Assembly: GCA_045616645.1 (NCBI GenBank)
Contig: JAZLHD010000179.1
Coordinates: forward strand, 5,633-69,632
Direction: 5' to 3'
DNA length: 64,000 bases
Source: Paludibacteraceae bacterium
GTDB taxonomy: Bacteria > Bacteroidota > Bacteroidia > Bacteroidales > Paludibacteraceae
Position numbers and translations under genes: made by a program. Positions 1-62,831 of this stretch are shown piece by piece; within the stretch, counting starts at the first letter, position 1, and each line of letters begins with the position of its first letter. Under the pieces are notes generated by a model. The model was not told the origin of the DNA. It worked only from the letters and a program-made list of their open reading frames with translations, and ran no database searches.

Positions 1-258
1 TTAGGAACAAGCGGTAAACGCAGGTGGTTCTCTATCACCCCCATCTGACTGAGGACCGTCTTGATACCACTGGGATTACCTTCGATAAATAAGTATTTGA
101 CTAAGTCCGCGTAGTGGTCTTGAAGTGCTTGGTCAGCGTTATGCACTATCTGTCCAAACGCCTCCGGATAAGCATTGGAGGCAACGGAGATAAGTCCGTC
201 CGCACCGGCTGCCATCAGCTCGGCTGCGAGGTTGTCGTCACCACTGAATATTTTTAGT
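1..258 (-). pseudogene. dapA: dapA 3' portion (C-terminal part of 4-hydroxy-tetrahydrodipicolinate synthase). It is out of frame with the 5' portion and continues past the window start.
   Basis: Manual translation of minus-strand codons 248->3 gives FSGDDNLAAELMAAGADGLISVASNAYPEAFGQIVHNADQALQDHYADLVKYLFIEGNPSGIKTVLSQMGVIENHLRLPLVP, a typical DapA C-terminus. The frame is offset by 1 nt from ORF 259..837. A TAG at 279-281 blocks upstream extension in this frame. Confidence 0.85.
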
Positions 259-837
259 TTAGAGTGTAGAGAAGCCGTCTAGTTTAATAGTTGAAAGTTT
301 TATGAGTTTTTTGATTTGTTTGATATTACCGGAGGCTTCTTTGATACCCATAATCTTGTCGGGATAGGCCTCATAGATACGCATCACCGTCTCAGGCAAG
401 AGGTTCACGCCCGTGCGCCCGGGCACGTTATATAAGATAATAGGTACAGGACTAACCTTCGCTATCGCGGAGAAATGTTGAAACAACCCCTCTTGAGAAG
501 GTTTGTTGTAGTAAGGGCAAACGCTCAAAATGGCTGAGCAATACTTGCTGAGTGCCGATTGTTGATTGTTGATTCTATTGATAAGCGCTTGAGTGTTGTT
601 CCCCCCAACGCCAAGGACGAGGGGTAGACGACCCTTTACCTTACGAATAATGAACTGCCATACGTTCAGTTTCTCCGGTTCAGTCATCGTCGCGGCTTCC
701 GCTGTGGTGCCAAGAACAACGAGAAAATCAACGTGCCCGGATAGTTGAATATCGAGCAATTTGTCTAGTCCTTCATAATCCACCGAGCCATCCGCGTGGA
801 AAGGAGTAATAAGGGCAGTGCCGAGACCGTGTATCAT
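259..837 (-). CDS. dapA: 4-hydroxy-tetrahydrodipicolinate synthase, N-terminal 192 aa, ending prematurely inside a heptamer repeat cassette
   Basis: The ORF contains TALITPF, LGTTAE, YNVPGRTG and the active-site region GIKEASGN. It terminates at CTC TAA (259-264) within the repeat instead of continuing to the SGDD motif. Confidence 0.9.
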   Translation of the reverse strand: MIHGLGTALITPFHADGSVDYEGLDKLLDIQLSGHVDFLVVLGTTAEAATMTEPEKLNVWQFIIRKVKGRLPLVLGVGGNNTQALINRINNQQSALSKYCSAILSVCPYYNKPSQEGLFQHFSAIAKVSPVPIILYNVPGRTGVNLLPETVMRIYEAYPDKIMGIKEASGNIKQIKKLIKLSTIKLDGFSTL

Positions 838-13934: not shown

Positions 13935-15329
13935 ATGCTGAAACGCTGTGTTTTTTATCTAATACTCCTTCTCGGGGTCGGGTTTGTGTCCGCCCAAACG
14001 AAGGTGACGATGGAACAACTCCAACACGATTGGAGTAAGTACCAAGGACAAAGAGTAACGATTACTACACCTCTTATCGTGTGTGGGAAGTTCTACGATT
14101 CGATTATCGTATCTTCCGAACGCTTATACGTTCCGGAAGAACGTGCTGTCGGATTAGGCGATGGCGATTCAACCCAATATTGGTATTGGCGCCACTACAA
14201 CGACTCGCTGCGAATCAAACTACAATGCAAGTCGTCTTTTAGCCTCAACCTCGGGGCAACTATCACGAACCTCACCGCACAGGTGATGGCTCCCCGCACC
14301 CTACAAACCGGTGCCGAACCTAAGTTTAGAAACTACAAACCTTCTAAACTCGCTAAACCAGCTAAACCCGCTAAACAGCCCGCAGGGCGTGCTCTCACTA
14401 TCTGTGCGGCGAACATACAAAACTATTTCGTACATGTGGGCGGTTATGCGACCAAACGGAACACGCCGGCTCAACACCAGTGGCAATGTGAGAAGACCGC
14501 GGCTGCTTTGAAGCGTATTGGGGCGGACATCTATGCTTTATGCGAGTTAGAACAAGGTTCCTCGGCTCCGACGGAACTGACGGCGCGAATGAACGAACTC
14601 TGCCACAAAGACCGCTATACGTTTGTCGTAACCGATACCCTCGATCGCGACACGATCTCGGTAGGCTACATATATAATAAGGAACGCGTGCGCCCGCAAG
14701 GGGACCTGATTTTTGTCTATCCCAACCGAAACAACATCTATGCCCATCGGTTTATGATTCAGGCGTTTGAAGATATCTCGACAGGCAAATCGTTCTATAT
14801 ATCCCTCAATCACCCTCGTTCCAAACGGGGTGATCCTGCCATGGCAAATGCTAAACGTGTAGGTAGTATCAAGCGTGTATTAGCGGCTTTAGACTCGCTC
14901 AAACACAATTCACCCTGCCCTACGGGGGAAGGGATGGAGAAGGGGCTTCCTATTCTCCTATTGGGCGACTACAATGCCTACGGACAAGAAGAATCGCTAC
15001 AAATGCTCGTCAAAGCAGGCTATAAAGATATGGTCATGACGATGGATAGCCTTAACTATTCGTATTCCTACAATGGTGAGTGTGGGTACTTGGATCGCGT
15101 CTTTGCCAATGAATCGATGCAACCGTATATCACCTCTATCCATCCCATCCACTGGAACACGGACTACTACTATTCAGCAGCTTATTGGAGCAAATATAAC
15201 TATAAGAACAACACTCCTCCCAAAGAGAAACAAGCGAATATCTGGAAGTGCGTCTCACCCCAAGCAAAAAAGAATCTCCTTTTCCGCTACTCTGACCACG
15301 ACCCCTTACTTATAACGCTCCACTTCTAA
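13935..15329 (+). CDS. secreted endonuclease/exonuclease/phosphatase family protein, paralog of 3348..4922
   Basis: Signal peptide MLKRCVFYLILLLGVGFVSAQ. EEP motifs (IGADIYALCELEQ, RYSDHDPLLITLHF). The start is moved to the ATG at 13935. Confidence 0.8.
   Translation: MLKRCVFYLILLLGVGFVSAQTKVTMEQLQHDWSKYQGQRVTITTPLIVCGKFYDSIIVSSERLYVPEERAVGLGDGDSTQYWYWRHYNDSLRIKLQCKSSFSLNLGATITNLTAQVMAPRTLQTGAEPKFRNYKPSKLAKPAKPAKQPAGRALTICAANIQNYFVHVGGYATKRNTPAQHQWQCEKTAAALKRIGADIYALCELEQGSSAPTELTARMNELCHKDRYTFVVTDTLDRDTISVGYIYNKERVRPQGDLIFVYPNRNNIYAHRFMIQAFEDISTGKSFYISLNHPRSKRGDPAMANAKRVGSIKRVLAALDSLKHNSPCPTGEGMEKGLPILLLGDYNAYGQEESLQMLVKAGYKDMVMTMDSLNYSYSYNGECGYLDRVFANESMQPYITSIHPIHWNTDYYYSAAYWSKYNYKNNTPPKEKQANIWKCVSPQAKKNLLFRYSDHDPLLITLHF
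14344..14379. repeat. nonamer tandem repeat CTAAACNNG x4, in frame (KLAKPAKPAKQ)
   Basis: ctaaactcg ctaaaccag ctaaacccg ctaaacagc. Confidence 0.85.
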
Positions 15330-16126
15330 TGAAATACGCGGCTACAATCGGTTTCTTCGATGGTGTTCATTTAGGGCACCAATACCTCCTCTCCTGTTTG
15401 AAAGAGGAGGCGGCGAAGCGTGGGTTGCAGTCAGCGATTGTGACCTTTGATGAACACCCTCAACAAGTCTTGCGGGGTGAAGCACCGTTGTTACTTACGA
15501 CTTTTAATGAGCGTATCACGCGATTGAGGTTTACCGGAGTAGATAAGGTAATCAGTTTTGATTTTGATCGCATTCACACCCTGTCAGCGGACGAGTTTGC
15601 ACAACTCCTTCACGATTCCTATGACGTCGATGTCCTCATTATGGGCTATGACCACCGCTTTGGTTGTACCAATCACAAATCACAAATCACCAATCACCAA
15701 TTAGAAATCATCCGTCTTCCCGAACTTCCTTCCAACCAACATGTGTCTTCTACTCAGATACGGCAAGCTCTTTTGAAAGGGGAGATAGTCAAGGCTAACG
15801 AGATGTTAGGTTACGCATATACTTTGATGGGAAAAGTGGTTCATGGCAAAGGGTTGGGACGGACGATTGGTTTTCCGACGGCAAACATTGAGGTAGAAAA
15901 AGATAAACTTATTCCTGCTCCAGGCGTTTATAGCGCCGAATGGAATGATAAAAAAGTCCTCCTCAATATCAACGACACCATCGAGATGTATGTTCCTCAT
16001 TTTGAGGGCGATTTATATGACCAAACCCTCTTTGTCGAACTCATCGCTCGTGTACGAGGGGAAAAACACTTTGATAATTTAGAAGATTTAAAAATACAAA
16101 TACAAAAAGATCTTTTATCATTATGA
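15329..16126 (+). CDS. ribF: bifunctional riboflavin kinase / FMN adenylyltransferase
   Basis: GFFDGVHLGHQ at the N-terminus and the kinase motif GKGLGRTIGFPTANI. At 265 aa it is shorter than I recall typical RibF (~310 aa). Confidence 0.9.
   Translation: MKYAATIGFFDGVHLGHQYLLSCLKEEAAKRGLQSAIVTFDEHPQQVLRGEAPLLLTTFNERITRLRFTGVDKVISFDFDRIHTLSADEFAQLLHDSYDVDVLIMGYDHRFGCTNHKSQITNHQLEIIRLPELPSNQHVSSTQIRQALLKGEIVKANEMLGYAYTLMGKVVHGKGLGRTIGFPTANIEVEKDKLIPAPGVYSAEWNDKKVLLNINDTIEMYVPHFEGDLYDQTLFVELIARVRGEKHFDNLEDLKIQIQKDLLSL
15670..15697. repeat. heptamer cassette (C/A)AATCAC x4 inside ribF
   Basis: caatcac aaatcac aaatcac caatcac encodes TNHKSQITNHQ directly after GYDHRFG. Confidence 0.9.
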
Positions 16127-18849
16127 AATCACCAATCACCAATCACAAATCACAAATCACCAATCACAAATCACAATTCACAATTCTTCTCTTATCCTTT
16201 GTCCTTTGTCCTTTGTCCCTTTTTGCTGCTGTTCGTACTGTAGACGAGGCGGCTGCTCTCGCATCGACGTTTAGGAACGAGACCGTAGTCGGACCTCATA
16301 AAGCACCCACATCGGCGGCTTCGATGCAACTCATTCACCAACGCACGAAACTCCAAAGCGAAGAGCCGGCTTTCTATATCTTTAACACTGCCAACGAGAG
16401 TGGGTATGTTATCGTCAGTGCCGATGACCGCACGGAGGAGATCTTAGGTTATTCCGAGCAAGGTTCCTTGGATTATGCAAATCTCAACCCAAATATGGCG
16501 TTTTGGTTGCGTCTCTTACAAGAGGCTATCTCGGCAACCAACGATACGAACACCTCTGCCAAAGCACCGATGGCAACGACGGCTATCGGTCCACTACTTG
16601 TTAATAAAGAGGGTAAGGAGATAACGTGGTATCAAGAGGCTCCCTATTCTAATCTGTGCCCATTAGATTCGGATAACAAACGCTGTTTGACGGGTTGCGT
16701 GGCTACGGCAGCAGCACAAGTGATGTACAAATGGTGTTACCCCAAACAGGGTATTGGTACCCATTCCTATGAATGGACGAACTCGGCAGGAAAGGAGAAA
16801 ACACTGACGGTTGATTACGGAAACACCACCTACGATTGGGGAAATATGCTCCCTTCCTATTTGTATAAATCCTCTACTTCCAAGCAAAAAACCGCCGTGG
16901 CAACACTCATGTACCATGCCGGTGTGGCTTGTAATATGCAATATTCGTCACAAGGTAGTGGCTCTTTAACGGATCTCATGGCGAACGGATTGGTAGATTA
17001 TTTTGGTTATCAGGTGGATAAGTTTATCACTACCTATTCGTCACGGTATTATCCTTCTGATTTTAAACCGACAGAGTATAAGGTTTCTATTACTAAGTTC
17101 ACCGAGTATTTCAATGCCGACTTAGAGAATGGTTATCCTATCATCATGGGCGGTGAGGATAGCGATGGCGGGCACGAGTTTGTGTGCGATGGACGAGATG
17201 CGCAAGGGAAATTTCATATTAACTGGGGTTGGGAAGGCGATAGCAATGGCTTCTTCTCCTTATCGGCATTAAAGGTAGATGGTTATAACTTTTCCTCGAA
17301 CATCGACGCGATCATCGGTCTGCGCCCGGCTAGCATGGATACGATTCACGTCACTTCCGTTTCGGTCAGTCCTGCTTCTACCACACTGAAAATCAATGAG
17401 CGCAAGCAACTGACGGTAACGATTCAGCCTACGAACGCAACCGACAAAAAAGTATCCTATACTTCTTCCAACCTCGAAGTAGCACAAGTCTCTGAACTCG
17501 GTGTCGTTCGTGCGGTGGGTGCAGGTAAGGCGAAAATAACGGTTACAACCAGTGATGGAGGGTTAACTGCGGTAAGCAATATCACCGTTACCAATGAGTA
17601 TGTCCCTTCGGATATTTTTGAGTTAGTGACTGATGCCTCGTCCCTTCAAGAGGGCGATGACATCATCATGGCAGCCACTTATAGCAATGTCCATTATTGC
17701 TTAACCAACTCCATGCATGCTACAACCAACACCAACTATGCCGACTGCGAACAAGTGCAGATTGTGGATAATACCATCACGATAGAAGACAATTCGAATA
17801 TCGCAATCTACAAGTTGGGTATTCAAGATGGAGCTTGGACGCTAATCAATGCAGATGGAAAGAAATTAGGTGCCTTGGGTGCCAAGAAACTGAGCTTTGA
17901 TTTGGGTTCGGTAACGTGGACACTGGACACCAAAAACAATAACACCACCATTGCGAACACCAACACTTCCTATGGTCGTATCTTGTACAATAACAATAAT
18001 AACAATCCTCGTTTCAGTATCTATACTTCTAACACCTCTAACACGATGTTGTTACCGCAAGTTTATGCGCGTAAAAGAAATCAGCCGGTAGAGGTGGTTA
18101 AAGTGACGGGGATAGAGTTAGGTCAGACTTCCGCACAGATGCTCGTTGACGAAGAGATTTTCCTCTATTATGCTGTCAAACCGGTAGCGGCAACGAACCA
18201 AGCGGTGATGTGGACTTCGTCTAATACGAAGGTGGCTGTCGTGGATCCTTCTCACCATTCGCTGGAGGATGAAAAGACCGTTTCTATTAAAGCCATCGCT
18301 GAGGGAGAGGCTACGATTACGGCAAAGACCCTGGATGGAGGCTTTGTAGCTACTTGCGTGATTACCGTCACCGAACAACCTATTGTGCCGACGGATACTA
18401 CTTTTATTATGGCTTCGGAGGCGAAAACGATTGCTATGCAGTTACCTGCAGGCGATCAAACGACAGACTTCTATGGAGTCAAGGGATATGTCACGGTCAA
18501 AAACTCTGTCGAATATCAGGGCTTTTGGTTGGACGATGAGCCGACTGCTAAAGAGACTTTCCAAGGCTTCCAATGCGCTATGCCGGATGACCACCTCTAC
18601 TTACAAATAGGAGAGTACGTGTGCGTCTATGGGTATCTCATGAACTATAACAACGAGAAGGCGCAGATTAAGAATGGTACGGTTGAGGTCTTAGATATAC
18701 CCGTTCCGCAAGGTTTATTGGATCCCTCTGCCTATCCGCCTTTCAGCCCATCTGCCTCTCAGCCGATCATGAAAGTTTTGGAGCATGGTCAGATGCTCTT
18801 CCTCCGTGCTGCAAAGAAGTACAACGTCTTAGGTTGCCCGATAAAGTAA
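16123..18849 (+). CDS. secreted C10-family (streptopain-like) cysteine peptidase with Big_2 Ig-like domains
   Basis: Catalytic-Cys context CLTGCVATAAAQVMYKW and His context GGHEFVCDG. Two Big_2-like segments (VTSVSVSP...ITVTN; VTGIELG...ITVTE). ATGA overlap with ribF. Confidence 0.85.
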   Translation: MKSPITNHKSQITNHKSQFTILLLSFVLCPLSLFAAVRTVDEAAALASTFRNETVVGPHKAPTSAASMQLIHQRTKLQSEEPAFYIFNTANESGYVIVSADDRTEEILGYSEQGSLDYANLNPNMAFWLRLLQEAISATNDTNTSAKAPMATTAIGPLLVNKEGKEITWYQEAPYSNLCPLDSDNKRCLTGCVATAAAQVMYKWCYPKQGIGTHSYEWTNSAGKEKTLTVDYGNTTYDWGNMLPSYLYKSSTSKQKTAVATLMYHAGVACNMQYSSQGSGSLTDLMANGLVDYFGYQVDKFITTYSSRYYPSDFKPTEYKVSITKFTEYFNADLENGYPIIMGGEDSDGGHEFVCDGRDAQGKFHINWGWEGDSNGFFSLSALKVDGYNFSSNIDAIIGLRPASMDTIHVTSVSVSPASTTLKINERKQLTVTIQPTNATDKKVSYTSSNLEVAQVSELGVVRAVGAGKAKITVTTSDGGLTAVSNITVTNEYVPSDIFELVTDASSLQEGDDIIMAATYSNVHYCLTNSMHATTNTNYADCEQVQIVDNTITIEDNSNIAIYKLGIQDGAWTLINADGKKLGALGAKKLSFDLGSVTWTLDTKNNNTTIANTNTSYGRILYNNNNNNPRFSIYTSNTSNTMLLPQVYARKRNQPVEVVKVTGIELGQTSAQMLVDEEIFLYYAVKPVAATNQAVMWTSSNTKVAVVDPSHHSLEDEKTVSIKAIAEGEATITAKTLDGGFVATCVITVTEQPIVPTDTTFIMASEAKTIAMQLPAGDQTTDFYGVKGYVTVKNSVEYQGFWLDDEPTAKETFQGFQCAMPDDHLYLQIGEYVCVYGYLMNYNNEKAQIKNGTVEVLDIPVPQGLLDPSAYPPFSPSASQPIMKVLEHGQMLFLRAAKKYNVLGCPIK
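16126..16181. repeat. heptamer tract (C/A)AATCAC x8 between the ATG and the hydrophobic core of the C10 peptidase signal peptide
   Basis: Eight consecutive 7-nt units are counted from 16126. A second heptamer CCTTTGT x3 at 16196-16216 encodes part of the hydrophobic core. Confidence 0.9.
18725..18764. repeat. octamer cassette (NNNNNGCC x5, reverse orientation of GGCTGAGA) in the C-terminal linker of the C10 peptidase
   Basis: cctctgcc tatccgcc tttcagcc catctgcc tctcagcc encodes PSAYPPFSPSASQP. Confidence 0.85.
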
Positions 18850-18934: not shown

Positions 18935-21601
18935 TTAATCGCAGAGGGGAGCGAAGGGGCAGGAAGTGCATTTATTGTAAGTGTCTTCCGTACAAGGGAA
19001 GGGGTTTTCGGGATGGCGTATCTCTTCAATCAGTTTCTTTACATAACCCAGAAACTCGTCTCTGATTTCCTCTACCTTCACAGACTCTTGCCCCTTCTGA
19101 TGTACTGCCGTCTCGGCTCCTTGCGCCAGCGACCGTACCCCATAGATGTGCGGTTCGCCCTGTCCATAAAGGATAGCATAGAGAATCGTCTGCAAAGCGT
19201 ACCCATTGCGCTTGCTGTCCGTCGGGTCAAAGAGCGAAGCTATCGAAGCGAACTCTGTTTCCGACCCGCCCGTCTTGTAATCGACTATTCTGATAGGCAG
19301 AGAGGCGGAAAGGCTGATAGGCTGAGGGGAATCGACTCGGTCGATGGTGCCTTTGAGGGTGACGATAGTGCCATCGTCCAACGTAAGCTCCATTCGACGC
19401 GGCTGCTCAGTTGCGATATATTGGAAAGGTGCTAAAGCAAGGTCGTGTTCGAGAATAAGACGGGCGTATTCCCTCAGTAACGTCGAAAGTAAGTCTTCAC
19501 CCTTCGGCAACGACTGTAACATCTTATTCACATCCTCCTTCGTCACCTCCTTCCCCACAAACGGCTCGTAACAGTTCTGCAAGATAAGATGCAGTTTCGT
19601 ACCTAACTCGCGAGGATCAATCTCCTCCGTCACTTCCTCCGGCTCTTGCAAACCACGGATATATTGCCAATAATATAGTTTCGGACAACGAAGGTACGTG
19701 TTTAAGCCCGAAGGGCTAAATGAGTTGAGAGTGGAGAGTGTAGAGTTTAGAGTAGTTTTATAGTTGAGAGTTGAGAGTGGAGAGGCAGAAAGGCTGATAG
19801 GCTGAGAGGCAGAAAGGCTGAGAGGCTGAGAGGCGGAAAGGTGGATGATGGGGTGCTTAAACTGGTATTGCAACTGATAGAGGTAACGACTGGGTTCACC
19901 CGAGTGCTGCTCATCGGTTCGGGTATTGGAGAGCAACCACACATCCTTGGCATAACTAATCATCCGATAGAAGTTATAAGCAAAAATAGCGTCCTTGCGC
20001 TCCGACGTAGGCAATGCTGCCTTGCAACGGAAAGAGTAGGGAATAAAACTATTAGCAATACTGTTCCCGGGATAGATATCATCATTAAAACTCGTGATAA
20101 TCAAATGCTCAAAGTCCAACGCACGCGTCTCTAATACACCCATAATCTGTAAGCCCTCAAGAGGTTCGCCCCTATATGCTATCGTTTCAGTTTGGAGCAA
20201 AGCCCCTACCAAGCCTCCCCCCGAAGGGGAGGATGTGTTAGGCTGAGAGGCGGAAAGGCTGAGAGGCTGAGAGGCGATGTATTTATCAATCCGATTGAGG
20301 ACCGTTTGGATCTTATAGACGGCTTCGGAGGCATCTTCGGGCAAGTGGTTCAGTATCTCGCGCCAGCGTTGGTCATCCTCGGAGAAGATACAAGACAAAT
20401 ACTCGTCTTTCTCGAAATACGAAACAGGAACATAGATGAGGTTCTGCTTGACCATCGCTTCTTGAATGCTCGCACAAGCCTCGGCACTCAGCCGTTGGAT
20501 ATACGGGTGCGACAAAACCGACTTCACATCCTTGTAATAAAACCCATTCTCCGTTCGACGACGATAAAGGTCCACTATAATCTGAATAAGTGCAAACACC
20601 GGTGTCGCTACCAACGGATAACCTGCCGTGACGTTGATCTTATCTATGTCTTCGGGTAAGGTGTGCAACAAAGGCAGTAACAATCGCTCATCGGGCATCA
20701 CAACTGCCGTCTTGGTCAATGGTAAGGGCCTTTCTAACTCGCTTAAGATACGATGTACCTCCTGCGCCTCGCCTACCGTAGAGGTTAGTTCTACCCAGTG
20801 TATCTCAGGAAAATGAACCTCACTCTGAGGCACTGTAAAACGAGAGTGGAAGAGTTTTTGGTTGTGCTCCATAAACAGAGACGAACGGTTGTCTTTATCC
20901 GTCACCCATGGATGTGAATAATCAAAATAGAAGTCGGCTCTGCCTTGTTCTTGCAAGAGAACCATCAATCGTTCCTCACTCTGCGTTAAGGCATTGAACC
21001 CGATAAAAACAAACTGCTGGTCGGGGTGCTCATCAAGCCAAGCCACTTGTTCCGCTTCCAACGCTGTAATCACCTCGCGATGAAGCATTCCATCGTAAGC
21101 CAGCCCCTCGCGTCGTAACTCGTCTTGCAGACGTTGGTAGATAATATCCAATGGCGGATAAGGAATGAAAGGAGCTTGTCCCTCGGTTTGGAAAGAGGCT
21201 TCTATATCGTGTGCCTCGCGGATATTAAGCAAAAAGCCAATAGGGTTATCTACTAAGTGATTGTCTATCTCATTAAAATCCCCAATCATCATCTTTCCCC
21301 AGAAAAGGAAAGTATCTAAATCTTCCTCCGTCAGTCCTTGTTCTCGTCTTATCTCGTTATGGATGCGGTAAACGCGCAAAAGTAAGTCTATCGGGTCTGC
21401 TAATTGGGTATTGGTGAACTGATAGAAACAGTCATTGATAGTCAGAATCGTTGGTGAAAGAGTCGGTTTGCCGCACGCTATTCCGAGGTCTCTGCGAAAG
21501 AAAAGACCTGCCCGCTGGTTGGGGAAAACAAACGTGTAAGAGGATAACTTATCTCCTACGTTTTGGGCGAAGAGCCTTGCCAAGTTTTGTAAATAACTCA
21601 T
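18935..21601 (-). CDS. PD-(D/E)XK nuclease family protein (AddB/RecB-like nuclease with a C-terminal Cys cluster)
   Basis: C-terminal GTIDRVD...RIVDYKTGG...QTILYAILYG nuclease motifs and CTEDTYNKCTSCPFAPLC. The start is set at MSYLQNLARLF (ATG 21599-21601). The track start at 21643 extends further into the antiporter gene. Confidence 0.75.
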   Translation of the reverse strand: MSYLQNLARLFAQNVGDKLSSYTFVFPNQRAGLFFRRDLGIACGKPTLSPTILTINDCFYQFTNTQLADPIDLLLRVYRIHNEIRREQGLTEEDLDTFLFWGKMMIGDFNEIDNHLVDNPIGFLLNIREAHDIEASFQTEGQAPFIPYPPLDIIYQRLQDELRREGLAYDGMLHREVITALEAEQVAWLDEHPDQQFVFIGFNALTQSEERLMVLLQEQGRADFYFDYSHPWVTDKDNRSSLFMEHNQKLFHSRFTVPQSEVHFPEIHWVELTSTVGEAQEVHRILSELERPLPLTKTAVVMPDERLLLPLLHTLPEDIDKINVTAGYPLVATPVFALIQIIVDLYRRRTENGFYYKDVKSVLSHPYIQRLSAEACASIQEAMVKQNLIYVPVSYFEKDEYLSCIFSEDDQRWREILNHLPEDASEAVYKIQTVLNRIDKYIASQPLSLSASQPNTSSPSGGGLVGALLQTETIAYRGEPLEGLQIMGVLETRALDFEHLIITSFNDDIYPGNSIANSFIPYSFRCKAALPTSERKDAIFAYNFYRMISYAKDVWLLSNTRTDEQHSGEPSRYLYQLQYQFKHPIIHLSASQPLSLSASQPISLSASPLSTLNYKTTLNSTLSTLNSFSPSGLNTYLRCPKLYYWQYIRGLQEPEEVTEEIDPRELGTKLHLILQNCYEPFVGKEVTKEDVNKMLQSLPKGEDLLSTLLREYARLILEHDLALAPFQYIATEQPRRMELTLDDGTIVTLKGTIDRVDSPQPISLSASLPIRIVDYKTGGSETEFASIASLFDPTDSKRNGYALQTILYAILYGQGEPHIYGVRSLAQGAETAVHQKGQESVKVEEIRDEFLGYVKKLIEEIRHPENPFPCTEDTYNKCTSCPFAPLCD
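19296..19327. repeat. octamer cassette GGCNGANA x4 inside the nuclease core of the AddB-like gene
   Basis: ggcagaga ggcggaaa ggctgata ggctgagg. It encodes QPISLSASLP between IDRVD and RIVDYK. Confidence 0.9.
19725..19847. repeat. composite array: heptamer family (TTGAGAG/TTTAGAG, 19725-19784) abutting octamer family (GGCTGAGA x8, 19784-19847)
   Basis: Units were read off base by base. It encodes SASQPLSLSASQPISLSASPLSTLNYKTTLNSTLSTLNS in frame. Confidence 0.9.
20200..20272. repeat. 38-nt palindromic element (20200-20237) followed by octamer cassette GGCTGAGA x4 (20241-20272), in frame in the AddB-like gene
   Basis: The reverse complement of 20200-20237 is cacatcctccccttcggggggaggcttggtaggggctt. 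It matches 32490-32527 at 36/38 positions. Confidence 0.9.
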
Positions 21602-23432
21602 ATATTGTCTGCTTAACGGTCGTAACCACGCGCCATGTACCACTGGCTTGCGGAATATCCATCAATAACCGGTCGGGTATATCGCCTCCGATAATCTGCT
21701 CGGGATAGATGAGCATCGTACTATGGCTTGCCGCTTGTTGGGTCAGGATATCGGGAATACGCGTGAACAACGGGTTATAACTCGGTGTCGATTTGCGGGA
21801 AGAGATAAGCACTAACATATCATTATCCTCCAAGTCCTGAATCGTCTTACGCGTGTCCTGCCACTCGTTGATGGTGCGATAAGAGGCAGCCAAGTATTTG
21901 CCCGGACGGTTACAGAGGGCACGTAAGATCATTTGCGTTTGCTCGGTGGCGTAGAACACCACTTTGGCACCAATCTGACTACTCAAACGGCGCAACTGAC
22001 CGAAACAGGAGATGAAGTCGTGCTCTTTCTCGGCGTAAGGTGGAACGGCAATAAGCATTCTGTCAATCGTGTTGAGTGGCTGATTCTCATGGTAGATAGC
22101 AATCGATTTAGAGGTGTGTTCCACCATCGTTTCCACTTCTTTCCAGTCTGCACACTCCACTATCTCGGTTTCGTGCAAGGAGGAAAGGTTACTCAGTTCC
22201 TTGAGTTCTTGATGCAAGTCCTCGCCTACCGATCCCATCAACCAGTCGTCTAAGACACGTTCGCTCTCTAATCGGGCATCCTCTTGTAAGGACAACCGCT
22301 TAGCCGCATATTCGGTGGCGAAAGAAGCCGTTGTACAAAGTACAAGAATCATCAAAATAACGCCATTTAATATCGCGTCGTCAAACAGTCCCATCTGATA
22401 GACAATCGTTACAATAGCTAATGTGCCGGCAGCGGTGGCGTGACTAAGACCGAAGATAAGTTGACGCTCGTTTGCCTGTAAATGGAATAATCCCTGTACA
22501 CAGGCGGCAGCGAGCCATTTGCCTACTAACTTAGTGACAATCATCACGGTAGCTATTATCGCTAACCAGCCCCACGAACCTACGGCTTGCAGGTTGAGCA
22601 TCAGTCCCACTTCAATCAGGAACACGGGCACAAACATACTATTGCCCACGAACGTGATGTGATTCATCAGTTGTGAGAGGTTGGGTATCAACCTATTCAG
22701 CGCTACCCCGCAAAGGAATGCACCGAGTACACCACTCAGTCTTGCCCAAGTGCATAATAAGGCGGATAGAACCATTAAGGCAATCACTAAAATAAAGTTC
22801 GTCGTTGTCTCCCAACGGAACTTAAAACACGTTCGAACAAGCCAAGGGAATCCGCCTAAGATAATAGCAATCACGCCCACTACTTTGCCTGCCCAAATAA
22901 GAAGTGAGATAGGTTCCATCGCTCCCGTCTGCATCTTTGCTTGCACACCGGCTAACACCAATAACGAGAGCGTGAGTGCAATCATCGTTCCCCCTACCGT
23001 GATGTTCGAGGCGGCACTTTTCTGCAAACCGTAACGCCGAACGATAGGGTAGGTCATCAATGTGTGGCTACCAAACATCGCACCCAACAAAAGTCCTACA
23101 ACAGGACTCAATCCCAATAACCTTGAGGATAGATATCCCAATCCCAATGGGAAAAAGAACGTGAGCAAACCAAACACAATCGCTTTGCCGCGTTGTTGAC
23201 TGAAATCGTTAATGTCAATCTCTACCCCTGCTTGGAACATGATATAGAGCATACCCAATTGTCCAAACACTTGGATAGCCGGTGTGTCCGCTAAGATATT
23301 CAAACCGCACGGACCCAATCCCACTCCCACTAAGATAAATCCGATAATAGCGGGAATATGAATCTTGTGACAAATCAGAGGGACGATAAAAATCAGCCCC
23401 AACACAATCATAAGTGGAATCAGTGTTTGCAT
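21549..23432 (-). CDS. cation:proton antiporter (CPA family Na+/H+ exchanger) with a C-terminal soluble domain
   Basis: About 12 predicted TM segments with GQLGMLYIMFQAGVEID, typical of Na_H_exchanger proteins. 13-nt overlap with the murG stop. Confidence 0.8.
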   Translation of the reverse strand: MQTLIPLMIVLGLIFIVPLICHKIHIPAIIGFILVGVGLGPCGLNILADTPAIQVFGQLGMLYIMFQAGVEIDINDFSQQRGKAIVFGLLTFFFPLGLGYLSSRLLGLSPVVGLLLGAMFGSHTLMTYPIVRRYGLQKSAASNITVGGTMIALTLSLLVLAGVQAKMQTGAMEPISLLIWAGKVVGVIAIILGGFPWLVRTCFKFRWETTTNFILVIALMVLSALLCTWARLSGVLGAFLCGVALNRLIPNLSQLMNHITFVGNSMFVPVFLIEVGLMLNLQAVGSWGWLAIIATVMIVTKLVGKWLAAACVQGLFHLQANERQLIFGLSHATAAGTLAIVTIVYQMGLFDDAILNGVILMILVLCTTASFATEYAAKRLSLQEDARLESERVLDDWLMGSVGEDLHQELKELSNLSSLHETEIVECADWKEVETMVEHTSKSIAIYHENQPLNTIDRMLIAVPPYAEKEHDFISCFGQLRRLSSQIGAKVVFYATEQTQMILRALCNRPGKYLAASYRTINEWQDTRKTIQDLEDNDMLVLISSRKSTPSYNPLFTRIPDILTQQAASHSTMLIYPEQIIGGDIPDRLLMDIPQASGTWRVVTTVKQTIYELFTKLGKALRPKRRR

Positions 23433-32082: not shown

Positions 32083-33075
32083 CTAAATTTTCTCTGCTAT
32101 TCTCAGTTTTGCCGACCGACTTCTCGGATTGCGTTCCACTTCCTGCTTATCCGCCATCAACCCTTTTTCAATTACCTTAAACGGTGTTAACGCGTTGCCA
32201 TAAAAATCTTTCTCTATCTCTCCCGTCAAGTTCCCCGACCTTAAAAAGTTCTTCACTATCCTATCCTCCAACGAGTGGTAGGTCAGTACCACAAGTCTTC
32301 CTCCGGGTGCTAACAAATCCCGCGCAGCACAAAGCATTGTCTTCAGAGCTCCTAATTCATCATTTACCTCTATTCGTAACGCTTGGAACACCAGCGTTAA
32401 CATCTTCTTCTCCATAGGATTCGCTTCCTCCGCTTTCTTTCCTATCAGTGCTTCAACTAACTCTTCAATCCGTTGTATCCCTCCTTCTTCACATCCTCCC
32501 CTTTGGGGGGAGGCTTGGTGGGGGCTTCCTGTCGCTTGTTTAATCTTCTTCGCCAACGCCCTACTATTCTTCAACTCGCCGTACAGGTACAGCACTTTCG
32601 CCAAATCCTCTTCGCTATACGTATTCACTATATCCGCTGCGGTTTTGCCGCCTTCGCGGTTCATTCGCATGTCGAGAGGACCGTCAAACCGAAAACTAAA
32701 TCCTCTTTCCGCTTGGTCAAAGTGGTGAAAACTAACCCCAAGATCCGCGAGTAGTCCATCAATATGATCCACACCGTAATAATCCATAAAGTTCTTGAGG
32801 TATCGGAAATTACTGTGTACAAACTGCCACTGCTCGTCTTTTACCACCTCCGGCCGATGAACTTTTGCATTTTCGTAGGCCTCAATATCCTGATCAAACG
32901 AATATAACTTTCCTTTCCGCCTCTCCGCCTCTCCGCCTCTCAGCCTTTCCAGTATCGCTGCCGAATGTCCCCCTCCTCCGAACGTCACATCCACATAGAT
33001 GCCGTTAGGCCTGATGTTCAGTCCCTTTATTGTCTGCTCCAACATCGCGGGTATGTGATACACGTCATTCTTCAT
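32083..33075 (-). CDS. rsmH: 16S rRNA (cytosine1402-N4)-methyltransferase
   Basis: YHIPAMLEQ..., DVTFGGGGHS, DLGVSFHHFD and LTYHSLEDRIVKNF motifs. At 330 aa it carries two extra low-complexity segments encoded by repeat elements. Confidence 0.95.
   Translation of the reverse strand: MKNDVYHIPAMLEQTIKGLNIRPNGIYVDVTFGGGGHSAAILERLRGGEAERRKGKLYSFDQDIEAYENAKVHRPEVVKDEQWQFVHSNFRYLKNFMDYYGVDHIDGLLADLGVSFHHFDQAERGFSFRFDGPLDMRMNREGGKTAADIVNTYSEEDLAKVLYLYGELKNSRALAKKIKQATGSPHQASPQRGGCEEGGIQRIEELVEALIGKKAEEANPMEKKMLTLVFQALRIEVNDELGALKTMLCAARDLLAPGGRLVVLTYHSLEDRIVKNFLRSGNLTGEIEKDFYGNALTPFKVIEKGLMADKQEVERNPRSRSAKLRIAEKI
32490..32527. repeat. 38-nt palindromic element (cacatCCTCCCCtttgGGGGGAGGcttggtgggggctt) inside rsmH, antisense to the gene
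   Basis: Hairpin CCTCCCC/GGGGAGG. 36/38 identity to the reverse complement of 20200-20237. A related copy at 62797-62831 is intergenic. Confidence 0.9.
32914..32945. repeat. octamer cassette (tttccgcc tctccgcc tctccgcc tctcagcc) inside rsmH
   Basis: It encodes RGGEAERRKG between GGGHSAAILERL and KLYSFDQD. Confidence 0.9.
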
Positions 33076-57178: not shown

Positions 57179-57210
57179 GGCAGAAAGGCGGATAGGCAGA
57201 TGGGCGGAGT
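57179..57210. repeat. intergenic octamer cassette GGCNGANN x4
   Basis: ggcagaaa ggcggata ggcagatg ggcggagt. Confidence 0.85.
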
Positions 57211-60400: not shown

Positions 60401-62778
60401 ATGCTCCGGAAGTGAAGTCTAATGATGTCAAATTGACATTCGCTAATAATGCGAAAGCTGCCGATGGGAAAACAGATGTGCAAGGTCGTATTATGATGGG
60501 ACCGCTCACGATTGTGCCCTACCTCTTCTACAAGACCAAATACCATAAGATTGATGTTGTTGGTGGAGACGAGCCTACTTGGACTAATCCGGATTTGATT
60601 AACAATACCGAGGATGGTAATATTGAATATACCATTGAAGATGTAGAGGGTGAAGGTGTCGCAGATATTGATGCTACCAATGGTCAAGTTACTGCTAAAT
60701 CCAATGGTAAGGCAAAAGTGACCGCTACTTGGACCCCTACCGGTGCATTGGAAGGAGAAGTAGTGACGACTACCTACGAAGTAGAAGTCTTCTATTCTAA
60801 ACTGGATGCTGAGTTAGCCTTTGATCCTGAAGAAATCACCGTAGGTGAGGATGCAATTGCAGTCTCTCCTCCTACTTTGAGCAATCCTCACGAGTTAACA
60901 ATTAAGTACTCCAGTTCTGATGAGGAAATAGCAACTGTAGATGAAGCCAAAGGTTTTGTTACATTAAAACAAGTTGCCGGTGATGTTATTATATCTGCAA
61001 CGAGCGAAGAAACAGATACCTATAAAGAGGGTAGTGCTTCTTACACGATTCATGTACTTCCTCTTCCTGATGTCTCTTTCCCGAATTTGACGGGCAATAA
61101 AAAGACCGTAGATATGGATCAAGTTCCGTTCACAGAGACAATATTGATCAAAGTAAACGAAGAGGATGTTACTTCTTCCGCTGAAATCACCTACACGAGC
61201 GATAATGAGGAAGTGGCTGTTATCAAAGATGGTGAAGTGAATATTATCGGCGAAGGAACGACTACTATTACTGCTAAAATTGCTCAAACAGAAATCTATG
61301 CCGGCAGGGATGTTTACTATACGCTCACTGTCAAGGATAATACCCCTGCCGAGAAACAGTGGACAGAGACCTTCTCTTCGATAGGTAATGTTAATGATTA
61401 TATTACAAGCAGAAAAGCTGATATTGTAGGAGATAGTAGCATCTATTCGTGGGCAATGAGGAATTATCGCCGCAGACAAACGCAGGCGGATTCTTTAGCC
61501 ACAGAACGAGCCATAAGGTTGAGCAATGCTAAAAACAATTATATCGAAACTCTCAATAATCAAGAGGGCGGTATCAAACGTATCTCGTTTAATTGGCGTA
61601 CTCCCGGTAACGAAGCAGGACAATTGCCAATCAACTTAAATGTGAGTGTTTGCTACAACAATAATTACCAAGACACTGTCAAACGTCCTATGACTCGTGC
61701 TAAGAGTAAAGATAATATGACGGACAACTCATATTGCAGTAATTTCTTCGTAAAGCAGAATGCTAAACTGAAGATTGATATTGCTGATGAAACTTATTCA
61801 GTGATGCTTATCGGTCCTATCACGATTGTTCCTTACCTGCTCTACACGGAGAAGGAAGTTTCCGTGAAAATGTTGAATCGAGATACCTATATCAATGAAT
61901 CTCTCATCAACAACACCGATGGCGGAACGATTGTGTATTCGTTAGAGGACAATGACGGTGTAGCAGAAATTGATCCCGAGTCAGGTGTTGTAAACTTACT
62001 CAAGGGTGGCGAAGTAACGGTTAAGGCATCATGGACACCTGAAGGCGAATCGGCTGCAACCGTTACGACTTCTTACAAACTGAAGATTAAAGGTTACATC
62101 TATCTGGATGAAAATCCGGATGAACCAATAGACCTAACTCCACATGCCGGTCAGACGATTGATGTAACGCTTGTTCGTAGTGATTTAGTTGCTAATATGT
62201 GGAACTCGCTCTGCTTGCCGTTCGCTATTGACAAAGCAGATTTAGGTGATGCTACAGTAGCTCAGATTGGCAAAACCGAATTGGTGGAAGATGTTCTCAA
62301 TATCTGGATTGCTGAGATTGCGGATACTGAGTTGGCAGCAGGCGTGCCTTACTTGGTATTTCCGACAGAGGGCGTTAATCTCTCTGGTGATTATGAAGAT
62401 GTGGTAGTGACTTCTGTGGCAGGGGCTCAAGGTGTGGGTATGGTTACCCTCCAAGGTATCTTCTCGCCGTTTGCAATGAATGCCGGTGATGAAAGTAAGT
62501 TGTTCTTGGCCGCTCCGGATGAAGAGGGACACAACCTCTTCTATGCTAGTAAAGATGGTAAACTCAAGGGTATGCGCGCTTACTTTAGTATTCAGAATAC
62601 ACCGAGTGGAGCACCTGTTCGCGTAGGTCGCATCGGTATCCAACAAACACCTACGGAATTGGGCGGAGAGGCTGATAGGCTGAATGGTAGACAGGCAATG
62701 AAAGTGCTGCGCGACGGTCAGTTCTATATCATTCGTGAAACTAAGACTTATAATGCACAAGGTATTGAAATCCAATAA
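57499..62778 (+). CDS. giant modular cell-surface protein (1759 aa). Layout: X domain, then 4 x (Y domain + Big_2-like Ig domains), a C-terminal globular domain and a conserved 25-aa tail.
   Basis: Signal peptide. Four Y modules each carry GG(V/I)K.(V/I).F.W and end in (V/I/M)GP(I/L).(I/F).PYL.Y, at about aa 185-342, 511-669, 845-1011 and 1285-1450. The Ig-like segments have the ...G.(V/I)T(V/A)....W......TTTY.L pattern. Confidence 0.85.
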   Translation: MKNEVNRAPWAKKKTFLFILALCAASVAWGATTVTKTAKQIADANGWTKVSTAYTSAKLDDNITITVTPGTEDKKNGVYYTGDYTDTYDWRMYQARANGQFTISAADGYLITSVKLTYEITNSGVVSISKKQNSVATPETDRIISGTSCPFAAQDLTFYVGNTTATTTNGQARIRSFSVTYEKGIYDDFRDPATGKQFSYSSATEKSVITQCFAWTVHQCRFNVSNDMDKLADGTLSHTMWKSSGSYLKTEAVEGGVKFVSFPWNQANADESSKGTETVKVTVDTKTQSQSRDGKKGENRGADSIFAYACNVAKNADVKIEITAGNRITVGPITFVPYLRYTQKSDELIILASEAEATYKNEAFINNTGATPTFSIISSEPASIATIAEDGTVTATASGTITVQAKWENVTTTYTLNITKNSLPVPQVSFEYDPVEKTMNDVPFVNAITAPTEGLGAITYSSTDPTVAEVATDGTVTIIGAGETKIQLAIAASETWAATDAEYTLTITDPQEEAIIETFPRSSSGSNTENKIGKYYEWTVTGGARTRTTDTLYIKGDNEEKYSIWLSGNDAASISTTIEGGVKRVGFLWNKFNKDASSVTISVKAGDVERKLTKEVQTGVNQNNPDLEFNSNFGVKSSNTTLTISKEKLDASTALQVGPIKITPYLLYTKKTLTVKLADVKSVGITNEKLIDNTEEEGTIVYSVPEDNGVATIESATGKLTISAAGEVIVTAAWDPEGGDNYTVTTTYKLIVNDRSHREAKFASPQVTMKQGEDLPGNELTYAKASGESITINYASSDNTVAEIINNAVVVTGVGMTTITATIEQTDDFYEDKASYLLIVYPKEDAKHVLVEDYKTATGGLASTGTQYQGNFATWTYRNSRSKDTDILKEGTKGFMFSHTNGENKASSYFEATLDGGIKAVYFDWKQFTKDDNGQNLIFQIKINNSVKKSIEDVAKDELVDNIQSFCYAPEVKSNDVKLTFANNAKAADGKTDVQGRIMMGPLTIVPYLFYKTKYHKIDVVGGDEPTWTNPDLINNTEDGNIEYTIEDVEGEGVADIDATNGQVTAKSNGKAKVTATWTPTGALEGEVVTTTYEVEVFYSKLDAELAFDPEEITVGEDAIAVSPPTLSNPHELTIKYSSSDEEIATVDEAKGFVTLKQVAGDVIISATSEETDTYKEGSASYTIHVLPLPDVSFPNLTGNKKTVDMDQVPFTETILIKVNEEDVTSSAEITYTSDNEEVAVIKDGEVNIIGEGTTTITAKIAQTEIYAGRDVYYTLTVKDNTPAEKQWTETFSSIGNVNDYITSRKADIVGDSSIYSWAMRNYRRRQTQADSLATERAIRLSNAKNNYIETLNNQEGGIKRISFNWRTPGNEAGQLPINLNVSVCYNNNYQDTVKRPMTRAKSKDNMTDNSYCSNFFVKQNAKLKIDIADETYSVMLIGPITIVPYLLYTEKEVSVKMLNRDTYINESLINNTDGGTIVYSLEDNDGVAEIDPESGVVNLLKGGEVTVKASWTPEGESAATVTTSYKLKIKGYIYLDENPDEPIDLTPHAGQTIDVTLVRSDLVANMWNSLCLPFAIDKADLGDATVAQIGKTELVEDVLNIWIAEIADTELAAGVPYLVFPTEGVNLSGDYEDVVVTSVAGAQGVGMVTLQGIFSPFAMNAGDESKLFLAAPDEEGHNLFYASKDGKLKGMRAYFSIQNTPSGAPVRVGRIGIQQTPTELGGEADRLNGRQAMKVLRDGQFYIIRETKTYNAQGIEIQ
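62662..62685. repeat. octamer cassette GGCGGAGA GGCTGATA GGCTGAAT in the linker before the C-terminal tail of the giant protein
   Basis: It encodes GGEADRLN, and the unit in codon phase 1 is the TGA-free variant. Confidence 0.85.
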
Positions 62779-62796: not shown

Positions 62797-62831
62797 TCTC
62801 CTCCCCTTTTGGGGGAGGTCGGAAGGGGGCT
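62797..62831. repeat. intergenic copy of the CCTCCCC/GGGGAGG palindromic element (terminator-like position)
   Basis: ctcctccccttttgggggaggtcggaagggggct. It is related to 32490-32527 and starts 19 nt after the stop codon. Confidence 0.8.

Follow-up and report, generated by a model that had tools for sequence, protein, structure and literature searches.

Degenerate octamer arrays in core genes of a gut Paludibacteraceae genome: a lineage-specific dispersed tandem repeat that is probably passenger DNA

The window analyzed here, a stretch of 64,000 nt of contig JAZLHD010000179.1 from a Paludibacteraceae bacterium which covers only part of its source genome, carries at seven loci head-to-tail arrays of a degenerate GGCNGANN octamer, one of them inside the rRNA methyltransferase gene rsmH. 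These arrays are probably a lineage-specific dispersed short tandem repeat, i.e., passenger DNA, parasitic or neutral, that is changed by slippage or exchange and filtered by selection, and the family belongs to an already known kind of repeat. The arrays are confirmed at the following coordinates, the strand being that of the G-rich unit, and are listed together with the two host genes treated in most depth:

18725-18764, minus strand: array in the C10 peptidase gene (gene on the plus strand), 5 units, translated antisense
19296-19327, plus strand: array in the AddB-like gene, 4 units, antisense peptide PQPISLSASLP
19784-19847, plus strand: longest array, in the AddB-like gene, 7 units plus degenerate GGTGGATG, antisense, encoding LSASQPLSLSASQPISLSA
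20241-20272, plus strand: array in the AddB-like gene (gene on the minus strand), 4 units, antisense peptide SQPLSLSASQP
32914-32945, minus strand: focal array in rsmH, GGCTGAGA GGCGGAGA GGCGGAGA GGCGGAAA, G-rich sense reading RLRGGEAERRK
57179-57210, plus strand: sole intergenic array of the family, GGCAGAAA GGCGGATA GGCAGATG GGCGGAGT, no T at position 4
62662-62693, plus strand: array near the C-terminus of the 1759-aa Big_2 protein, 3 units (to 62685) plus degenerate GGTAGACA, G-rich sense reading GGEADRLNGRQ
18935-21601, minus strand: AddB-like PD-(D/E)XK nuclease gene, Pfam PF12705, 888-aa product P0121
32083-33075, minus strand: rsmH, MraW-family 16S rRNA m4C1402 methyltransferase, Pfam PF01795, E=1e-87

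An assembly artefact is excluded, as the sites are occupied in independent NCBI, ENA and Logan assemblies too. An earlier note on this DNA had announced eight loci; every array that it listed is present, but its list holds seven. Its gene assignments agree with Pfam (Peptidase_C10, PDDEXK_1 for the AddB-like gene, MraW/RsmH and the Big_2 giant protein), and it had translated the rsmH and giant protein arrays, as well as the SQPLSLSASQP-type arrays of the AddB-like and C10 genes, correctly. In the G-rich orientation the octamer follows the consensus GGC[T/G/A]GA[G/A/T][A/G], with a near-invariant A at positions 6 and 8 and with variable positions 4 and 7. The period is 8, and the 3-13 units of an array are contiguous, without spacers; four units is the mode, found in 13 of 22 arrays from four genomes, the intergenic array included. 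The exact octamer GGCTGAGA is present in 11 copies in the window as compared to 1.33 expected, and the three-unit pattern GGCNGANNGGCNGANNGGCNGA has 17 matches as compared to 0.00 in 100 dinucleotide-preserving shuffles. With head-to-tail units inside the range of 1-11 nt and a frequency above that predicted by genome composition, the arrays qualify as long simple sequence repeats (LSSR). Their start and end fall in arbitrary register and their ends are ragged; neither fixed ends and inverted termini nor a duplicated target site are seen in the flanks. As had been claimed, no stop occurs in any of the three frames of the TCTCAGCC orientation, be it in the arrays of the window or in any pair of observed units. 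Read in different orientations and frames, one DNA unit codes for unrelated peptides, and it is also present between genes, where no open frame of at least 100 aa runs over the array 57179-57210. These unrelated peptides and the intergenic copy, taken with relatives that either lack arrays or carry other families, support a repeat that lives at the DNA level; the arrays are probably not designed protein motifs.

The change at rsmH can be read to the nucleotide. The conserved RsmH motifs are intact in the alignment of the window protein with its relatives, and the array separates the GGGGHS..AIL helix from the GKLYSFDQD strand; in an AlphaFold2 model (mean predicted local distance difference test score, pLDDT, 82) it occupies the loop from helix 36-46 to strand 56-61, and in distant orthologues the loop at this site is about 6 residues shorter. 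The closest RsmH, P0003 of the related locus L202, is 92% identical over aligned residues. Its site reads ATA CTT GAA AGG CTG AAA GGT AAG TTA, encoding ILERLKGKL, and thus holds one native unit GGCTGAAA followed by GG (native GGCTGAAAGG, codons ERLKG), besides an 8-nt direct repeat GAAAGGCT GAAAGGTA. As compared to L202, the window gene has identical flanks and exactly 24 nt extra, equal to three octamers or eight amino acids. All three rsmH units after the first have G at position 4, in any phase, and the extra units (two GGCGGAGA and one GGCGGAAA) do not match the resident unit (GGCTGA.A) at this position. In L201 (GCA_045598805.1) the site holds 13 units with a 24-nt higher-order period of GGCGGAGA GGCAGAAG GGC[A/T]GAGA; L203 (about 90% identical) carries CAAAGGA-type heptamers there, and remoter relatives carry heptamers (GGCGAAA or GAGTCGG), octamers (GAGGCGAN or GGAGTTCA) or small hairpins. 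Three unrelated inserts occupy the site within RsmH cluster 1, whose members are 95-98% identical elsewhere, and in a heptamer-bearing RsmH cluster the lengths differ by 7 and 14 residues, i.e., by three and six heptamers (21-nt steps). As alleles within clusters differ in inserts and lengths, the population-level length variation that the earlier note had proposed to look for does exist at the rsmH site, in genes by three-unit steps.

The distribution of the family among relatives is patchy. The GGCNGANN family is absent from 80 related loci (1.38 Mb) and likewise from the nearest fetched relatives, L202, L203, L206 (GCA_024400135.1) and L207 (GCA_045627765.1); the pyruvate:ferredoxin oxidoreductase of the last is 98% identical to that of the window as protein but only 85% as DNA. 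It is found in three remoter genomes, with three arrays in L201, 12 in 22.6 kb of L204 (GCA_045599545.1; all genic) and one in L205. Unit variants are genome-specific across loci: GGCRGAAG units make up 0/33 in the window as compared to 19/73 in L201 and L204 together (p=6e-4). Moreover, three sense arrays in three different genes start with the same GAAAGGCTGAAAGGCGG (peptide ERLKGG), and the hosts are mostly housekeeping genes (rsmH, murG, mraZ, murF-alr, AddB-like). Orthologous sites differ in the presence of arrays: the rsmH site is empty in L202 and filled in the window, and the AddB-like site 19296-19327 has 0 units in L205, 1 in L206, 2 in L204 and 4 in the window, a pattern that is also expected from repeat expansion. 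Transposition had been considered on the strength of near-identical arrays (window 20241 and L204 14453, 1 difference in 32 bases) and was rejected, since with about nine unit variants and 231 array pairs a match that is one base off is not clearly beyond chance. Period-7/8 arrays as a class are common in this clade, reaching about 1 per kb; their units differ between genomes, and period 7 dominates. A census over 1.52 Mb gave 307 non-redundant classifiable period-7/8 arrays of at least 3 copies, with 13 more that were ambiguous in context; 171 of the 307 lie inside open frames of at least 150 codons, this 'genic' class being one of open frames and not of curated genes, and 136 lie outside.

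Selection against stop codons has left a mark on these arrays, in a form that differs from the one first proposed. The earlier note had observed that in arrays read in the G-rich direction the unit that falls in phase 1, where the consensus would give GGC TGA, is a variant without T. In the window, both arrays so read have GGCGGAGA as the unit read GGC|NGA, which amounts to two units only. An intact open reading frame (ORF) cannot hold an in-frame GGC TGA and these two cases are therefore tautological; furthermore, since T stands at position 4 in about 44% of all window units, two units without it are unremarkable. Counted over the window alone, T at position 4 occurs in 3/8 sense as compared to 11/21 antisense units (p=0.68), a difference that is not significant. 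The direction of the effect was nevertheless right, as becomes apparent when 22 arrays of the family from four genomes (the window and three related ones, with L204 dominating) are pooled: T at position 4 is found in 8/62 sense and 25/45 antisense units (Fisher p=4e-6), an array-level Mann-Whitney test gives p=3e-4 (12 vs. 9 arrays), and L204 alone has 3/31 and 12/19, respectively (p=1e-4). T at position 7, which would give TAG, behaves likewise (3/62 sense, 13/45 antisense, p=8e-4). The claim that the filter is specific to phase 1 was not borne out. In sense arrays T at position 4 is seen in 0/23 units of the in-frame phase, but it is also depleted in the two harmless phases (8/39, p=0.0016 as compared to the antisense rate), so that the effect is orientation-wide. 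In the phase in which position 4 is the synonymous third base of an Ala codon (GCN), T is present in 1/19 units (p=2e-4), which therefore speaks for a history at the DNA level and not for selection on the peptide. Codon bias was rejected as the cause of the depletion, as GCT is the commonest Ala codon, and DNA strand or replication orientation was rejected as well, as the T-rich arrays of L204 lie on both strands and track gene direction. The note had further implied that the units without T should be scarcer between genes; the sole intergenic array lacks a T unit altogether and counts against this, as one array. Its view that the same filter acts on independent repeat families holds across the period-7/8 families in general, and is accordingly nothing special to the octamer family: among genic period-7/8 arrays in the 1.52 Mb, there are 16 whose consensus contains a stop trinucleotide in the sense direction alone and 77 in which it does so in the antisense direction alone (p=1e-10). 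The stop-codon filter is thus real and general, and it is the survival of non-disruptive insertions. Within-array homogenisation might copy a purine-type unit onto any phase, while copying a T-type unit onto the in-frame phase would be lethal, and T would therefore be ratcheted out of sense arrays. Avoidance of stops is to be expected; it chiefly gauges how strongly selection filters insertions.

The AddB-like gene shows how densely one gene can be populated, as it hosts three octamer arrays, one heptamer array and one hairpin. The three octamer arrays fall into three segments that are non-conserved loops in all orthologues, distant ones included, and in the clade of the window these segments hold different repeat peptides in each genome. 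The heptamer array abuts the longest octamer array in the same variable loop:

19722-19784, plus strand: GAGTNNA heptamer array in the AddB-like gene, abutting the octamer array 19784-19847

At the site 20241 an antisense array is present in the window and in L205, heptamers are present in L206, and L204 has a sense arm, GGAACC and then an antisense arm. Such inverted pairs were observed three times in one gene of L204 (10542-10610, 11360-11420 and 11794-11863); each consists of a purine-type sense arm, GGAACC or GGAGCC, and a T-type antisense arm (TATCAGCC, TCTCAGCC), and the arms would pair save at the variable positions. In L002 (5130-8132), the AddB-like orthologue of Horse_feces144, longer modules are repeated within the loops, for example 18-nt GAAGGCGGTCTTACAGCC three times and 23-nt CTGTAGCGAAGCGTCCACTAACC twice, and the peptides ISESPERPA, CSEASTNH, VAKRP and LQVRG recur at several sites. 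The C10 orthologues of L206 and L207 have another octamer family, of the GGAGTAGA/GGTGTAGA type, at the array site. The tails of the C10 peptidase (18769-18846) and of the Big_2 protein (62698-62775) have a 26-residue C-terminus in common, MKVL..GQ....R..K.YN..G..I, with 46% identity, and in both proteins the octamer array is in the linker directly upstream of it. This tail matched no Pfam or NCBIfam family and may be a secretion or sorting signal.

A second small element, a hairpin of 19-28 nt with the form CCTCCCCCC-RAA-GGGGAGG, is present in four copies in the window as compared to 0.04 expected:

14914-14932, minus strand: copy in an exo/endo/phosphatase-like ORF
20214-20232, plus strand: CCTCCCCCCGAAGGGGAGG in the AddB-like gene, encoding SSPSGGG, spacer ATGTGTTA
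32495-32513, minus strand: CCTCCCCCCAAAGGGGAGG, 19 nt, in the second variable site of rsmH
62800-62818, minus strand: copy just past the stop codon of the giant protein

Longer flanks (CAAGCC...ATGTG) are common to two of the four copies. The copy in the AddB-like gene lies about 8 nt upstream of the array at 20241. The second variable site of rsmH, residues ~185-197, has a pLDDT below 50, varies among relatives and carries the 19-nt hairpin. Related hairpins occupy the rsmH site in L058 and L062. In L007 (1389-1493, rsmH) a hairpin CCCCAAAACGC...GCGTTTTCGGGG is embedded in a GGCGAAA heptamer array at the array-loop site.

Further repeats of period 7 or 8 were observed in the window. A heptamer array, AAATCAC in 8.3 copies (16126-16183), is situated at the very start of the C10 gene and encodes ITNHKSQ ITNHKSQ ahead of a signal-peptide-like hydrophobic stretch; it is 42 nt (6 units) longer than in L207 and longer than in L206, too. 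A second octamer family, TAGGCGTT/TAGACGTT with about 6 units, occupies the intergenic region from dapA to a DUF6913 gene (837-886), where the window has 36 nt more than L207. The dapA gene itself (dihydrodipicolinate synthase, window 1-837, minus strand) is split, with the break at ~255-302 in a GAGTNNA-heptamer-like stretch: a TAA closes the frame after the first 192 codons, and the remaining, C-terminal part is continued in another frame. As compared to the intact gene of L207 (296 aa), the window has 4 nt more (TTTA) at 258 and 9 nt less at 302. The split may mean that dapA is a pseudogene, that the repeat has driven a frameshift or that the assembly is wrong here.

From these patterns we infer slippage, exchange between loci and neutrality as the processes behind the arrays. 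Arrays would arise and change length at purine-rich proto-repeats when replication slips or exchange is unequal; unit variants would be spread and homogenised within a genome through gene conversion or ectopic template switching between arrays at different loci; and selection would remove the insertions that break genes. Those surviving in genes would lie in tolerant loops and linkers, would differ between alleles by steps of three units (24 nt, 8 aa) and would be free of in-frame stops; the latter condition would favour the TCTCAGCC orientation and, together with homogenisation, would strip T units from arrays read as GGCNGANA. The rsmH array may accordingly be regarded as a three-unit expansion beside the native GGCTGAAAGG, in the loop that precedes the strand binding S-adenosylmethionine. 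The 24-nt and 21-nt steps are then due to frame selection, and the copy-number series as well as the ragged ends fit slippage-type dynamics. Exchange between loci or strains is included on account of the G-type rsmH units, the swapped families, the overwritten loops and the variants shared within a genome, which suggest it. Several observations weigh against this account. Plain triplication of the resident rsmH unit would create an in-frame TGA, and local slippage alone therefore does not explain the rsmH allele of the window. RsmH alleles at least 95% identical hold entirely different repeat families at the site, and in L204 the native loop has given way to an array in murG and at one AddB-like site, where the length is hardly altered or not at all. 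The mismatch of the extra units, the family swaps and the loop replacement would need exchange between loci, recombination between strains or a templated process. Moreover, the 24-nt difference at rsmH between L202 and the window may be a gain or a loss, and the four-unit mode, with the intergenic array included, is not explained by frame constraint alone. As to the pooled test of stop avoidance, units within an array and orthologous arrays are not independent and L204 dominates the sample; the 'neutral' unit composition is taken from antisense arrays because only one intergenic array of the family is at hand.

According to the main rival, a dedicated trans-acting system writes the arrays and slippage is secondary. 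Such a system might be a very small mobile element comparable to the small dispersed repeats (SDR) of cyanobacteria, or a templated repeat-adding or patch-repair enzyme (reverse transcriptase, primase-polymerase), and it would insert genome-specific 7-8-nt units at breaks or seed sequences. It would be in line with one family at many unrelated loci of a genome that is absent from close relatives, with families that are swapped at a fixed site between RsmH alleles of 95% identity or more, with L204 murG and AddB-like loops overwritten without net insertion, with inserted rsmH units that are not copies of the resident one, with GAAAGGCTGAAAGGCGG at the start of three sense arrays in three genes, and with the association of the arrays with the 19-28-nt hairpin element in its four copies. 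However, the arrays begin and end in arbitrary register without fixed ends, inverted termini or target-site duplication, their unit composition varies internally, and the series of 0, 1, 2 and 4 units at one site resembles ordinary repeat dynamics; in addition, no reverse transcriptase, transposase or integrase was found among the genes of the 64-kb window, and a scan of viral contigs for the 24-nt core gave no match. We regard a system of this kind as unlikely on the whole. The bolder proposition, that a trans-acting, genome-specific process writes or copies 7-8-nt units into chromosomal sites, loops of essential genes included, appears quite doubtful; it would explain the similarity of arrays within a genome, the family replacement at a fixed site and the overwritten loops all at once and, if true, genomes and protein loops would be diversified by one hitherto undescribed mechanism in both the gut Paludibacteraceae clade and the heterocystous cyanobacteria.

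Another possibility, to which we give little credence, is that each array slipped locally and independently from a native proto-repeat of its own, with no exchange between loci, and that the common unit owes its form only to the need for an octamer that does no harm, is rich in purines and contains no stop. Both GGCTGAAAGG and the direct repeat are present at the rsmH site even when it is empty, the array ends are ragged, and polymerase slippage has been proposed for 7-nt units (Mrazek, 2007, as cited in PMC4679880). Independent events would nevertheless hardly be expected to yield one degenerate unit at seven places within 64 kb and at 12 within 22.6 kb of L204, with none in 80 related loci, nor unit variants that are genome-specific across loci, unrelated families at orthologous sites of near-identical alleles, or new rsmH units unlike the seed unit. 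Selection at the protein level, for flexible or disordered linkers of the GGEAERRK or SLSASQP type that tune their host proteins, is very improbable. Despite the placement of the arrays in loops and linkers, the hydrophilic, low-complexity character of the peptides and the position of the C10 and giant-protein arrays just before the common C-terminal tail, the peptides encoded by one DNA unit are unrelated, a copy is intergenic, the closest RsmH relatives have no insert or unrelated ones, and T is depleted even where it would be synonymous.

Two further readings seem to us scarcely tenable. According to the first, the arrays are contingency loci: one unit more or less would put the host gene out of frame or back into it and so turn it off or on (phase variation). 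Phase-variable repeats classically have periods that three does not divide, two of the hosts, the C10 peptidase and the Big_2 giant protein, are secreted or exposed at the surface, and dapA at the left edge of the window is split within a heptamer-like stretch; the hosts, however, are mostly housekeeping genes, the observed alleles are all in frame and differ by three units, the surface-protein arrays lie in the last 30-40 codons, where a frameshift would remove the tail only, and the arrays are short (mode 4 units) and impure. Frame switching by single unit steps, which defines phase-variable contingency repeats, was thus not seen in the alleles compared, and this class was rejected. According to the second, the arrays would act in regulation, either because four or five GG tracts of the G-rich strand fold into a two-tetrad G-quadruplex or because that strand is bound by a protein. 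The strong four-unit mode, to which the intergenic array conforms, recalls the four-unit preference of GGGNATC repeats (PMC4692102), but GG tracts with 6-nt loops make weak quadruplexes at best, the arrays have no consistent place relative to promoters or gene starts, and they are transcribed in either orientation. When arrays and hairpins were folded as RNA, the z-scores lay between -0.8 and +0.8, i.e., no structure beyond that of shuffles, so that a structured RNA was dropped as well; Rfam at gathering thresholds gave 0 matches in the window. A target of a diversity-generating retroelement was rejected, as the window has no reverse transcriptase and variation is at positions 4 and 7 while the A positions 6 and 8 are near-invariant, and a CRISPR array (clustered regularly interspaced short palindromic repeats) was rejected, as the units are contiguous, without unique spacers.

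As for the setting of the arrays, the matches of a scan with the window MurG are all metagenome-assembled genomes (MAGs) of Paludibacteraceae or Bacteroidales from horse, ruminant, pig and human gut, the best being 89% and 78% identical. The window encodes ligA, ruvC, pyruvate:ferredoxin oxidoreductase, ribF, the C10 peptidase, the AddB-like PD-(D/E)XK nuclease, the cluster for division and the cell wall that runs from mraZ/rsmH to murG, a set of extracytoplasmic function (ECF) sigma factor, FecR, SusC and SusD, and the 1759-aa Big_2 protein; it is from the genome of a herbivore-gut member of the Paludibacteraceae and holds ordinary chromosome genes. A metagenome scan with GGCNGANAGGCNGANAGGCNGANA was discarded as too permissive, as its 120 loci were unrelated, most of them being perfect microsatellites, and came from a wide range of environments. 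Look-ups for exact copies of the window's RsmH, giant protein and LigA gave no match. A gene for an Na+/H+ exchanger (21549-23432) separates murG from the AddB-like gene in the window and in L205; it is absent at that place in L201, L204 and L002. Synteny between the window and L207 breaks after the C10 gene. The segment 52000-57000 has a GC content of 0.37-0.40 as compared to ~0.46 and encodes a D12-class adenine methyltransferase, a small nucleotidyltransferase (NTP_transf_2/Polbeta) and, next to the methyltransferase gene, a 362-aa ORF to which Pfam assigns no family. This segment might represent an islet of restriction-modification or toxin-antitoxin genes.

Among known repeats, the octamer arrays resemble LSSR and the short tandemly repeated repetitive (STRR) sequences of cyanobacteria in that they are dispersed head-to-tail arrays of short units, beyond chance, sporadic and lineage-specific, with period 7 dominating in the clade. 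Heptamers predominate among LSSR with 5-11-nt units, for which polymerase slippage has been proposed, and LSSR in coding regions mainly have units of multiple-of-three length (Mrazek, 2007, as cited in PMC4679880). By contrast, the unit described here has 8 nt, the host is an uncultured gut member of the Bacteroidales, 171/307 period-7/8 arrays of the clade are in long open frames, and the family at a site is replaced between near-identical alleles. The arrays are not strict STRR sequences because of the 8-nt unit and the host: STRR units are heptanucleotides, and heptamer families coexist with the octamers in the same genome, while STRR hosts are heterocyst-forming cyanobacteria and the relatives found here are gut MAGs of Paludibacteraceae and Bacteroidales. 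TAACTGA heptamers are known from marine Beggiatoaceae, some Cyanobacteria and five Bacteroidetes, mostly between genes and just upstream of start codons, where a translational role was proposed; it has already been argued for them that the stop-bearing orientation cannot persist in genes whereas the other can (MacGregor, 2015; PMC4679880). The octamers have in common with them the dispersed non-triplet tandem structure, the patchy occurrence among lineages and the logic of orientation and stops, but they are mostly intragenic, in frame, and have no positional link to gene starts. The heptamers GGGNATC and GGGGA(C/T)T of Xanthomonas and Nostoc likewise prefer four units, and about one third of them are intragenic in Nostoc; GGGNATC-type units have GGG or GGGG tracts, fold into quadruplexes in vitro and are overrepresented within 50 bp of the ends of ORFs (Rehm et al., 2015; PMC4692102). 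The octamer is equally G-rich, degenerate, dispersed in the genome and inclined to four units, but GGCNGANA has GG tracts only. Rickettsia palindromic elements of ~150 bp, which resemble transposable elements of the miniature inverted-repeat type (MITEs) and encode a conserved peptide (PMC10969869), are similar as repeated DNA that stands in frame in unrelated housekeeping genes at positions tolerated by the fold; the octamer inserts, however, are tandem arrays of 24-100 nt without inverted termini and are read in either orientation. Classification as a MITE-like element was rejected for the lack of defined ends and target-site duplication. The SDR of Nostocaceae are dispersed elements of ~20 nt that are possibly mobile (Elhai et al., 2008, as cited in PMC5861425 and PMC2884548). 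The 19-28-nt hairpin of the window, beside or near arrays and inside genes, is comparable to them, as is the L007 hairpin within an rsmH heptamer array, but the hairpin shows no sign of defined insertion contexts or mobility, and the octamer arrays have no fixed ends. SDR are reportedly also nested in heptamer arrays. Within the literature searched in full text, no paper pairs Paludibacteraceae with tandem repeats, and none describes the phenomenon in this group.

Taken as a whole, these results indicate that non-triplet short tandem repeats can live in frame in the core-gene loops of a clade of gut Bacteroidales, in hosts such as rsmH, murG, mraZ, murF-alr, the AddB-like nuclease and the C10 peptidase, at a density of ~0.2-1 per kb, and that they turn over even among alleles at least 95% identical. 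Differences in gene length and 'hypervariable regions' in such MAGs can hence be read as repeat dynamics and not as errors or adaptation, and the array sites are natural markers of insertion-tolerant loops as well as useful strain markers. They also provide a second system, phylogenetically remote from the cyanobacteria, in which to ask how dispersed heptamers and octamers spread.

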